DNA from: Escherichia coli
GTDB taxonomy: Bacteria > Pseudomonadota > Gammaproteobacteria > Enterobacterales > Enterobacteriaceae
Length of the DNA stretch: 64,000 bases
Assembly: GCF_003790525.1 (NCBI RefSeq)
Contig: NZ_CP033635.1
Direction: 5' to 3' (one strand)
The position numbers were made by a program, and so were the translations under genes. This document shows positions 33,284 to 38,083 of this stretch, piece by piece (position 1 is the stretch's first letter; each line of letters opens with the position of its first letter). The notes under the pieces were generated by a model. It did no database searches and was not told where the DNA came from. It saw only the letters and a program-made list of their open reading frames with translations.

Positions 33284-34132
33284 ATGGCGACATACCTTAT
33301 TGGCGACGTTCATGGTTGTTACGATGAACTGATCGCATTGCTGCATAAAGTAGAATTTACCCCTGGGAAAGATACCCTCTGGCTGACGGGCGATCTGGTC
33401 GCGCGCGGCCCGGGTTCGCTGGATGTTCTGCGCTATGTGAAATCCTTAGGCGACAGCGTACGTCTGGTGCTGGGCAATCACGATCTGCATCTGCTGGCGG
33501 TATTTGCCGGGATCAGCCGCAATAAACCGAAAGATCGCCTGACACCGCTGCTGGAAGCGCCGGATGCCGACGAGCTGCTTAACTGGCTGCGTCGCCAGCC
33601 TTTGCTGCAAATCGACGAAGAGAAAAAGCTGGTGATGGCCCACGCCGGGATCACGCCGCAGTGGGATCTGCAGACCGCCAAAGAGTGCGCGCGCGATGTA
33701 GAAGCGGTGCTGTCGAGTGACTCCTATCCCTTCTTCCTTGATGCCATGTACGGCGATATGCCAAATAACTGGTCACCGGAATTGCGGGGGCTGGGAAGAC
33801 TGCGGTTTATCACCAACGCCTTTACCCGGATGCGTTTTTGCTTCCCGAACGGTCAACTGGATATGTACAGCAAAGAATCGCCGGAAGAGGCCCCTGCCCC
33901 ACTGAAACCGTGGTTTGCGATTCCTGGCCCCGTCGCTGAAGAATACAGCATCGCCTTTGGTCACTGGGCATCGCTGGAGGGCAAAGGTACGCCGGAAGGT
34001 ATTTACGCGCTGGATACCGGCTGCTGTTGGGGCGGGACATTAACCTGCCTGCGCTGGGAAGATAAACAGTATTTTGTCCAGCCGTCGAACCGGCATAAAG
34101 ATATGGGTGAGGGAGAGGCGGCCGCGTCTTAA
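33284..34132 (+). CDS. apaH: Bis(5'-nucleosyl)-tetraphosphatase (symmetrical), Ap4A hydrolase
   Basis: 282-aa [23 protein letters not shown]...; metallophosphatase motifs GDxHG, GDLVARG, GNHD. Confidence 0.96.
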
Positions 34133-34156
34133 CGCTTTACCATTCAGGGAGGAATA

Positions 34157-34756
34157 ATGGCTGACTATTTTGAAATACGTGCTGATTACAATCAGCACAC
34201 CATCACGGTTTATCAGGCTTACAATGATGCAATCGCTGACGTCGCCGTACGTGACGGGCGATTTGGCGCACCTTTTTCATTCAACCGCATGACCTGGATT
34301 AAACCCTCTTTTATGTGGATGATGGAGCGTAGCAACTGGGGACTGAAAAAAGATCAACAACGCATTCTCGCAATCCGAATCAAACGCACCTTCTTTGATA
34401 CATTGCTGGAACAAGCGGTGCTAACCACGCCGGAAGCCCATGTCTATCCACATGCAGGAGTTTGGGAAACGTTATTTGCGCAAGCAAATGTATATGTTCA
34501 GTGGGACCCAGAACGCAGCATAAATGGCAAAAAACTGGAGCACCGATCATTACAGCTTGGTATTTCTCGTAACTTGATCAGTCAATTTAACGAAGACGCC
34601 ATTGTTGCCATTGATGATCTGACGCCGCTGGTGCGAAAGTGTCATAACCTTTTGATAAACGGTAAAACAACACAGGCGAAATCCTTCCTGCCGCCAGAAA
34701 AAATTTATCCTGTTAGTGCAACTGCAAGAAAGGCTTGGGGAATGAAAAATTCCTGA
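34157..34756 (+). CDS. Hypothetical protein, 199 aa, soluble; strain-specific insertion appended to apaH
   Basis: ATG 24 bp after apaH stop with GGAGG 8 bp upstream; intact ORF MADYFEIRADYNQHTITVYQAYNDA...; no motif I can assign. Confidence 0.7.
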   Translation: MADYFEIRADYNQHTITVYQAYNDAIADVAVRDGRFGAPFSFNRMTWIKPSFMWMMERSNWGLKKDQQRILAIRIKRTFFDTLLEQAVLTTPEAHVYPHAGVWETLFAQANVYVQWDPERSINGKKLEHRSLQLGISRNLISQFNEDAIVAIDDLTPLVRKCHNLLINGKTTQAKSFLPPEKIYPVSATARKAWGMKNS

Positions 34757-34791
34757 GACAAATACGCGCCTATTAAGCGGAAAATATCTAA

Positions 34792-35241
34792 GTGCGACAA
34801 ATCAACGCCGGGCTTAATACCAGAGAAATTATTCTGGAAATGATTGACGAAGCAGATGAACCCCCGTTTGCTGAGCAGCGAACCTGGCATCGCAGGCGAA
34901 TCGCTTTTCTTTGTGAGTGCATCAGCGTTGCTGTCGACTACGGCTTCTTCTGTTCTGTCTCTCAGCAGTCAATAATGAACATAACCAGGATGGCTGAAGA
35001 TGTATGGATAACAGAAAGTAAAACGACCCAACTCATTGATATCTGGCAGCAACTTAAGCAGCTTTATCCGCCAGAAACTATTCCCTATACCCAGCAGTTA
35101 CCCGCTAAAGAATTGCTTGAACTGCTACTTTCCAGTCCTGACGATCTTCGAATAATTGAAATCCCTGACATCATCGGCGATGTTTTTGATGACCAAACCT
35201 GGATTCGATTATTCAAAAAACACTTTGCTGATGTTATCTAA
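34792..35241 (+). CDS. Hypothetical protein, ~133-149 aa, acidic; second gene of the apaH-folA insertion
   Basis: ORF from GTG 34792 (alternative ATG at 34840, MIDEADEPPFAEQ...); 35 bp after upstream ORF, same strand; start uncertain. Confidence 0.6.
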   Translation: MRQINAGLNTREIILEMIDEADEPPFAEQRTWHRRRIAFLCECISVAVDYGFFCSVSQQSIMNITRMAEDVWITESKTTQLIDIWQQLKQLYPPETIPYTQQLPAKELLELLLSSPDDLRIIEIPDIIGDVFDDQTWIRLFKKHFADVI

Positions 35242-35557
35242 CTACGATGTGATGTGTAACAATCTAAAATACATCGCCAGACGACAGACCAAAAAGAAAG
35301 TATTTAGCAGATACTCAACATTCTGACTTCTGTACAGAAATAGCAGAGTTTAAAAACTTAAAATTTCCGGTACTCATCAGAGAAACATCCTGTTTCTTCT
35401 GCAAGTTCATTTAATGCCGAGATGGCATCCTCGTTTACTTCAGTCCACTGTAGAGTGGCTTGAGGGTTTAGACCTACGCAATGAGCGCGACTCACAAAAT
35501 CGCGCTCACTGGTAAAATCAGACGTCTTATCGTTCAATTTGTAGTCATAGCAAAAAC

Positions 35558-38083
<2,526 letters not shown>

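Follow-up and report, generated by a model that had tools for sequence, protein, structure and literature searches.

We analysed an islet of accessory DNA that lies between the core genes apaH and folA in a 64,000-nucleotide stretch of the Escherichia coli contig NZ_CP033635.1 (hereafter the window), which matches E. coli SMS-3-5 (NC_010498.1) at 100% identity. The islet carries two plus-strand open reading frames, termed ORF1 and ORF2, and, on the opposite strand, a decayed copy of the antitoxin gene ccdA. On balance, we favour the explanation that it is horizontally acquired cargo in a plastic chromosomal site, made of three mutually independent pieces, of which ORF1 would perform non-lethal ADP-ribose chemistry. 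The anatomical part of this explanation can be held with high confidence; the mechanism proposed for ORF1 is tentative and, in our estimate, stands somewhat short of even.

Anatomy of the islet

When the window was compared by blastn to an O157-type (L002) and a K-12-type (L003) locus, homology was found to break at position 34132 and to return at 35554, and the insert therefore corresponds to positions 34133..35553. Its GC content (37-47%) contrasts with that of the flanks (52-59%). A preliminary description of the window had placed the end of apaH at 34132 and the folA stop from 35558 onward, had listed two plus-strand ORFs at 34157..34756 and 34792..35241, and had put the K-12 spacer at this site at about 77 bp. 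These statements hold: the apaH stop codon occupies 34130-34132, the folA stop begins at 35558, with 4 nucleotides between it and the right end of the insert, and the spacer of K-12-type strains measures 77 bp, both in the JM83 locus and according to published work (PMC7232551). The tail of about 315 bp, which had been taken as non-coding, contains on the contrary the ccdA remnant on the minus strand (35358..35537), so that the supposed two-gene unit consists of three pieces. The RefSeq annotation of SMS-3-5 already includes all three genes, the ccdA remnant being listed as a CcdA family antitoxin.

ORF1 (34157..34756, plus strand, 199 amino acids, ATG start) begins just 24 nucleotides after the apaH stop, and a Shine-Dalgarno-like GGGAGG can be read at 34147..34152 on the same strand, 4 nucleotides ahead of the start codon. 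No terminator-like site was found between apaH and ORF1, and ORF1 is probably cotranscribed with the pdxA-rsmA-apaG-apaH gene row by read-through from apaH. ORF2 (34792..35241, plus strand, 149 amino acids) follows in tandem after 35 nucleotides. An AT-rich spacer of 116 nucleotides (35242..35357) then separates the converging ends of ORF2 and of the ccdA remnant. This spacer contains no ORF of 40 amino acids or more lying wholly within it (a 56-amino-acid ORF at 35156..35326 overlaps it in part), no Rfam match near the gathering score and no terminator-like site. A scan for promoters and terminators did not rise above shuffled expectation (4 versus 2.2±1.4 and 3 versus 2.4±1.7, respectively). 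At the edges of the islet, we found neither notable flanking direct or inverted repeats nor an att-like or repetitive extragenic palindromic (REP)-like signature. Both flanks are core genes, apaH on the left (33284..34132, plus strand, from ORF call and annotation) and folA on the right (35558..36037, minus strand, from annotation); an ORF of 204 amino acids called at folA is an in-frame upstream extension of that gene.

ORF1 is a DUF4291 protein with a predicted ADP-ribosyltransferase fold

ORF1 matches the Pfam family DUF4291 (PF14124) over its full length (E-value 2.2e-68, residues 6-184 on positions 1-180 of the 180-position model). The preliminary description had found no assignable motif in either protein, which proved incorrect for ORF1 and correct for ORF2; it had nevertheless pointed to a conserved-looking aromatic block, TWIKPSF, which is the 'WIK' motif of DUF4291. 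About 7800 DUF4291 relatives of ORF1 are present in a protein collection clustered at 90% identity, and the best 120 are 129-258 amino acids long. The protein is basic (isoelectric point, pI, 9.3), the preliminary description having called it neutral or basic, and keeps its full length in E. coli, E. albertii, a cryptic-clade Escherichia and Superficieibacter, with a ratio of nonsynonymous to synonymous substitution rates (dN/dS) of 0.12-0.24. Searches of PDB sequences with single sequences and with family profiles returned no usable match, and neither NCBIfam, PADLOC and PHROG nor phage genomes contained a match to ORF1.

An AlphaFold2 model of ORF1 built with 55 homologues (predicted local distance difference test, pLDDT, 94.9; predicted template modelling score, pTM, 0.90) displays, at the level of a model, the core fold of ADP-ribosyltransferases (ART). 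Using two methods, the sole strong structural match to this model was RhsP2 (PDB 7RT7), which was also the only Foldseek match with an E-value below 0.001 (6e-5, probability 1.00, template modelling score 0.71 when normalised to the target). Since RhsP2 came first in the structure searches, an RNA rather than a protein substrate is suggested.

DUF4291 has been predicted to be an atypical ART that occurs in bacteria, fungi and some animals, with motifs QA[YF], WIK and [AS]IQ mapped to ART motifs I-III; the same study obtained support for NAD+ binding from docking, found exotoxin A and RES to be closest to the family, and suggested protein targets (PMC12522546). In ORF1 these motifs read Q20-A21-Y22, W47-I48-K49 and S131-L-Q133. 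Residues Q20, W47, K49 and Q133 are invariant among the 55 homologues, and ORF1 retains every family-invariant residue. A canonical triad, whether H-Y-E, R-S-E or the R-Y-E of RhsP2, is absent: at the positions mapped in the published structural alignment, ORF1 has Q20, W47 and Q133. RhsP2 ADP-ribosylates the 2'-OH of structured RNA by means of the triad R1490-Y1524-E1576, and its E1576Q variant is inactive (PMC12340436). Because ORF1 carries a glutamine at the position of this catalytic glutamate, a classical lethal ART activity of ORF1 is doubtful, and its cleft appears to be conserved yet chemically different, with Q-W-Q in place of R-Y-E. The DUF4291 study does not mention RhsP2, and the RhsP2 paper draws no link to DUF4291.

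Genes next to DUF4291 in other genomes

We fetched 80 genome loci encoding DUF4291 and, at those with usable gene calls, scanned the two genes on each side against Pfam, in a sample weighted to Bacteroidota (see below). The resulting 148 neighbours included Macro (10), NADAR (7), adenylosuccinate-synthase-like (5), Metallophos (4), Tpt1/KptA (3), ADP-ribosylglycohydrolase (3), Microbial PARG (2), SIR2 (2) and NUDIX (2) proteins. Cluster representatives comprised DarG-like and YmdB-like macrodomains, NADAR, a DraG-like ADP-ribosylhydrolase (ARH), an RNA 2'-phosphotransferase and an ApaH/PrpE/Pnkp-like phosphoesterase. A previous neighbour census agrees with ours in outline (Macro, ARH, NUDIX and PTS_2-RNA; PMC12522546), to which NADAR, PARG and the ApaH/PrpE-like phosphoesterase are added here. 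In two Aquimarina loci a bacterial PARG is encoded directly upstream of DUF4291 (E-value 3.5e-50 to 3sig), and PARG is the sole hydrolase class shown to reverse the 2'-OH RNA mark of RhsP2 (PMC11833690). Three Flavobacteriia loci have a KptA gene adjoining DUF4291. Some arrays stack erasers of differing specificity, L042 for example having the order NADAR, PARG, DUF4291, DarG-like macrodomain, NADAR. In Listeria costaricensis, DUF4291 stands behind a histidine-phosphatase gene with no eraser alongside.

ORF1 is thus a DUF4291 gene that is intact and under selection. We propose that it would be transcribed from the apaH gene row and that its product would bind NAD+ or ADP-ribose in a cleft of the ART type. 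This protein would perform a non-lethal ADP-ribose chemistry on a ribose or phosphate oxygen of RNA, in an RhsP2-like or Tpt1/KptA-like manner, and might belong to a network in which the ADP-ribosylation of nucleic acids is written and erased, or repaired.

Other recurrent neighbours were recorded in the same loci. An ApaH/PrpE/Pnkp-like metallophosphoesterase gene is the first or second one downstream of DUF4291 in three Flavobacteriia loci (L031 6654-7406, L044 5604-6371 and L055 5608-6366), and in the N-terminal half its product shares 28% identity with E. coli ApaH (E-value 2e-10). This arrangement recalls the adjacency of apaH and DUF4291 in Enterobacteriaceae, which may thus go beyond a chance product of the hotspot. 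Five Chryseobacterium genomes carry a 356-amino-acid adenylosuccinate-synthase-like (PurA/PurZ-like) gene beside DUF4291, directly upstream in four of them (L025, L027, L028 and L029, at about 3878-4948) and two genes upstream in the fifth (L026, 1210-2280), all its matches falling far under the NCBIfam equivalog cut-offs. Two further proteins, of 284 and 138 amino acids and with no assigned family, also recur next to DUF4291 in Chryseobacterium. Finally, tandem DUF4291 paralogues were observed in two loci, with the second copy directly upstream (L041 4363-4998 and L064 4339-4938).

ORF2 belongs to a small helical family

ORF2 is acidic, as the preliminary description had it (pI 4.6), and has no sequence match in Pfam, NCBIfam, PADLOC, PHROG or the PDB. 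Its close relatives occur only in Escherichia, with two exceptions: P0008, a 189-amino-acid protein that is 57% identical to ORF2 and whose gene is the only one separating apaH from folA in a further enterobacterial contig (L004), and a Superficieibacter protein of 218 amino acids that is 48% identical. Both of these begin with a CxxC...CxxC zinc-ribbon-like motif. The E. coli protein can be aligned to them only from its residue 7 onward, which corresponds to residue 42 or 68 of the relatives, and an in-frame TAA immediately precedes its GTG start; by these two features, ORF2 is an N-terminal truncation in which the zinc-ribbon-like element has been lost and the helical domain kept. A profile search among 1.84 billion representatives retrieved only 20 members of this family of acidic all-helical proteins, including about 15 distant full-length relatives that carry the same N-terminal motif.

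The surroundings of two distant relatives are informative. The gene of P0137 belongs to a series of small genes on one strand, among them TriTu, which the title of PDB entry 7zhm names as the immunity partner of the toxin TreTu. That of P0141 is part of an extended array that also contains SUKH/SMI1_KNR4, Imm51, ankyrin, DUF1963, DUF4261 and DUF2262 genes and is a typical poly-immunity locus. Such residence applies to these distant relatives, and the E. coli ORF2 is found outside any array of this kind. In a fold search ORF2 came close to the immunity protein SsdAI (PDB 7JTU chain B). By context and analogy, ORF2 may thus be of immunity type, and in our preferred explanation it would be a leftover protein of this type, deprived of its zinc-ribbon-like element and not needed by ORF1. 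Another candidate identity for ORF2, as a homologue of RhsI2, was rejected, RhsI2 not being among the top 60 fold matches.

A further distant relative, P0136 (227 amino acids; L016 4064-6661, in the enterobacterial chromosome CP043271.1), starts 1 nucleotide after a DUF3828 gene and is followed by an unannotated gene of 115 amino acids and by two tandem LPP lipoprotein paralogues, forming a small same-strand cluster.

ORF1 and ORF2 as a proposed toxin-antidote pair

The preliminary description had regarded the two genes as a compact toxin-antitoxin (TA), effector/immunity or small defence cassette. The broader part of this idea, conflict-system cargo in a hotspot, is borne out by the ART fold of ORF1, which resembles that of a type VI secretion system (T6SS) toxin, by the poly-immunity arrays that house ORF2 relatives, by the antitoxin remnant and by ccdAB, which 37% of E. 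coli genomes carry at this position. Its narrower part is not. In that form ORF1 would be an RhsP2-like RNA-ADP-ribosylating toxin, bound and blocked by the acidic ORF2 in a working toxin-immunity or TA pair, which we consider quite improbable. The RhsP2-like fold of ORF1, the tandem arrangement of the two genes at 35 nucleotides and the ccdAB TA system housed at this site in other strains would all suit such a pair, and the lone ORF2 homologue of L004 is what would be expected if, as a rule, antidotes can outlive their toxins.

The pattern of co-occurrence points the other way. A toxin should never be found without its antidote, and ORF2 is broken in at least two independent ways beside an intact ORF1. 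In E. albertii, ORF2 is frameshifted by a 1-nucleotide insertion near codon 22 and ORF1 retains every motif; in the L105 lineage (a cluster of 28 member sequences) ORF2 diverges past residue 108 and stops, again next to an intact ORF1. Conversely, ORF2 homologues exist without DUF4291, in L004 and also among the distant relatives: no DUF4291 gene was detected near them at the five loci with usable flanks (P0136/P0137 in three places, P0141 in one, and the L015-L017 variants), the contig of P0139 being too short for context. The two families are also grossly unequal in size, with about 7800 DUF4291 members to about 20 of the ORF2 family (roughly 400 to 1), and DUF4291 also occurs in fungi and animals (PMC12522546). 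Moreover, the E. coli ORF2 lacks the N-terminal element of its family, and Q-W-Q replaces the R-Y-E triad of RhsP2, whose E1576Q variant is inactive. ORF1 is not the C-terminal part of a delivery protein; it is a stand-alone protein of 199 amino acids encoded directly behind a housekeeping gene, with no RhsI2-type immunity gene adjacent, and, as stated above, RhsI2 was missing from the top fold matches of ORF2. For none of the three islet proteins did we obtain a PADLOC-DB 2.0 family at an E-value of 1 or less, which speaks against a small defence module as well.

The ccdA remnant and variation at the folA-apaH site

The third piece is a decayed ccdA without ccdB. It spans 59 codons from a TTG start (35358..35537, minus strand; annotated in RefSeq as 35358..35495, WP_075210438.1) and matches the Pfam family CcdA (PF07362; E-value 3e-8, residues 27-59 on positions 39-71 of the 71-position model), with no NCBIfam or PADLOC match. 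The encoded protein is 48% identical to residues 12-77 of CcdA-O157, relative to which about the first 11 residues are gone and 14 internal residues are deleted, and 77 nucleotides of its DNA (35366..35442) are 80.5% identical to the O157 ccdA. The N-terminal domain is thus incomplete, there is no adjacent ccdB, and comparison by blastn to the O157-type locus revealed no ccdB homology in the insert. Given this low identity (48% for the protein and 80% for the 77 nucleotides of DNA), the truncation and the deletion, the remnant is not a recent derivative of ccdO157.

In a sample of 5426 complete E. coli genomes, in which the islet was counted at a coverage of at least 80%, the DUF4291 islet was present in 536 genomes (9.9%) and O157-type ccdAB in 2022 (37%), the remaining genomes, about 53%, having neither. 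Mine et al. reportedly distinguished in 2009 a group of isolates in which this spacer holds a sizeable DNA segment, with a remnant of ccdA and with ORFs to which no function was assigned; we take this segment to be the present islet. The folA-apaH spacer has been described as plastic and open to the insertion of foreign DNA (PMC7232551 among others). The islet also occupies this site in E. albertii, in cryptic-clade Escherichia and in further E. coli lineages. In Superficieibacter electus (L009) the order is apaH, DUF4291 (81% identical to ORF1), the 218-amino-acid protein, a minus-strand PRiA4_ORF3 gene and folA; the full-length ORF2 homologue is located at 6801-7457 and PRiA4_ORF3 (PF07929) at 7558-8178, where the ccdA remnant would be. 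The islet thus varies at its own right-hand end, PRiA4_ORF3 replacing the ccdA remnant in this organism.

Several observations concern the circulation of the islet. Two haplotypes were distinguished among 543 E. coli genomes, one at least 99% identical to SMS-3-5 (63 genomes) and one at about 96.5% (477 genomes, including O111 Shiga toxin-producing E. coli), and E. coli H75 (NZ_CP068591.1) matches the ccdA-remnant end of the islet only. Between Escherichia species (L011, L013 and L014), the synonymous divergence (dS) of the islet is 0.09-0.25 as compared to 0.44-0.49 for the flanking apaH, which suggests that lineages exchanged the islet more recently than its flanks diverged. In two of these three comparisons the ccdA remnant is 99.4% identical, and in most of them identity falls to 85-88% in the 3' third of apaH (33600-34050 of the window).

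A plasmid origin of the islet was rejected, the two small matching plasmids being chromosomal folA segments captured by the insertion sequences (IS) IS1 and IS26; two very large records labelled as plasmids contain the whole chromosomal arrangement and are hence no source element. The small plasmids are E. coli resistance plasmids carrying the chromosomal folA and the ccdA remnant (L103, NZ_CP072804.1, pPK5074-69kb, 4248-7363; L104, NZ_MG252036.1, pSW2367-1, 4245-9735), with IS1 and IS26 at the borders of the segment and blaTEM-1 alongside. One of them has an ORF2 cut by IS1, and the other has kefC and kefF, with aph(3')-Ia adjoining the captured segment. It seems that IS elements picked up folA from a strain with the islet, which may bear on trimethoprim tolerance. 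As to a phage origin, DUF4291 was absent from 50,697 phage records.

With 90% of E. coli genomes devoid of the islet, it could also be viewed as what earlier insertions have left behind, without any role today. The decay of ccdA and the absence of ccdB, the truncation of ORF2, its breakage in places and its weak GTG start right behind a stop codon are all in keeping with such a functionless remnant. We nevertheless judge it very improbable: dN/dS is low for ORF1 (0.12-0.24) and for ORF2 (0.20-0.28, including a comparison to the L004 copy at a dS of about 1), and ORF1 is full length from E. coli to Superficieibacter, with every family-invariant residue kept.

A possible set of antidotes without toxins

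The main rival to our preferred explanation, although unlikely, is that the islet assembles three protective genes without their poisons. DUF4291 would then guard RNA from RhsP2-type ADP-ribosylating toxins, whether it takes off or processes their mark or occupies their target, the ccdA product would neutralise incoming CcdB, and ORF2 would be an orphan immunity protein. It is this specifically protective, anti-toxin role of DUF4291 that sets the two explanations apart. The eraser stacks around DUF4291, as in L042, resemble a detoxification arsenal more than one writer with its eraser, and such erasers have been proposed to be defence modules against ART toxins (PMC11833690). The arrays in which ORF2 relatives neighbour TriTu, SUKH/SMI1_KNR4 and Imm51, the proximity of the ORF2 fold to SsdAI, the conserved C-terminal part of CcdA retained in the remnant and the glutamine of ORF1 at the position of the catalytic glutamate of RhsP2 are likewise consistent with it. 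On the other side, two of the three putative antidotes are degenerating, ORF2 being truncated and repeatedly broken and ccdA decayed, and we know of no ART-fold protein that acts as an eraser or a shield.

A bolder form of the same idea, which we regard as decidedly unlikely, would make DUF4291 a new ART-fold class with a Gln-Trp-Gln site that repairs or shields ADP-ribosylated or 2'/3'-modified RNA, and the islet an antidotes-only island. If this were true, some E. coli lineages would be armed against RNA-ADP-ribosylating toxins delivered by competitors.

Several points weigh against our preferred explanation, namely that of independently acquired cargo with a non-lethal ORF1. The dN/dS of ORF2 indicates purifying selection and not mere debris; a basic ORF1 next to an acidic ORF2 has the look of a toxin-immunity couple; and the adjacency of DUF4291 and ORF2 is kept in both Escherichia and Superficieibacter, at protein identities of 81% for DUF4291 and 48% for ORF2. 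As regards the chemistry, the assignment of Q20, W47 and Q133 to the triad positions follows the published structural alignment (PMC12522546), and our literature search on DUF4291 found no experimental work. The ADP-ribose-related neighbours come nearly all from Bacteroidota in a sample weighted to that phylum, the simple ORF caller having failed on 27 of the 80 loci, which were of high GC content.

Comparison with known systems

The islet is not a new defence system. It was already annotated in RefSeq, the variability of the site had been documented, and an ART-like nature of DUF4291 was predicted in 2025 (PMC12522546); what is new is the link to RhsP2, the added DUF4291 neighbours, the assignment of ORF2, in truncated form, to a small family of immunity type and the evidence against a pair. 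DUF4291 is a large, uncharacterised family, and its E. coli member, encoded behind apaH in about one genome out of ten, makes genetics easy. The tie to RhsP2, together with the PARG, NADAR, macrodomain and KptA neighbours, yields a concrete substrate hypothesis, RNA and not protein. For the TA field, the islet illustrates in detail how conflict-system cargo gathers and erodes at the folA-apaH hotspot.

Among known systems, the closest in fold is the toxin domain of RhsP2, which is paired with RhsI2 in the T6SS of Pseudomonas aeruginosa (PDB 7RT7) and is, to our knowledge, the only known RNA 2'-OH ADP-ribosyltransferase. ORF1 shares about 10% sequence identity with it and no sequence-level match, stands alone without Rhs or PAAR, and has Q20, W47 and Q133 for R1490, Y1524 and E1576; toxicity is probably absent from ORF1. 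With the DUF4291 proteins described in PMC12522546, ORF1 shares the QAY, WIK and [AS]IQ motifs, the nearest relative being RhsP2 in our analysis in contrast to exotoxin A and RES in theirs.

The RNA 2'-phosphotransferase Tpt1/KptA provides a non-toxic parallel, as it has the ART fold, uses NAD+ on RNA, works without the classical catalytic glutamate and adjoins DUF4291 in Flavobacteriia. The layout of DUF4291 loci in Bacteroidota, with an ART-fold gene beside a macrodomain or NADAR eraser, is that of DarT-DarG and ART-NADAR pairs. Compared to the proteins of poly-immunity loci (SUKH/Imm and SsdAI), ORF2 differs in having no Pfam, NCBIfam or PDB sequence match and in the loss of its N-terminal zinc-ribbon-like element. 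Finally, the ccdAB genes of ccdO157 share the insertion site with the islet, whose own ccdA copy adjoins folA at the same position and in the same orientation; this copy is truncated, has lost an internal stretch and is not accompanied by ccdB.

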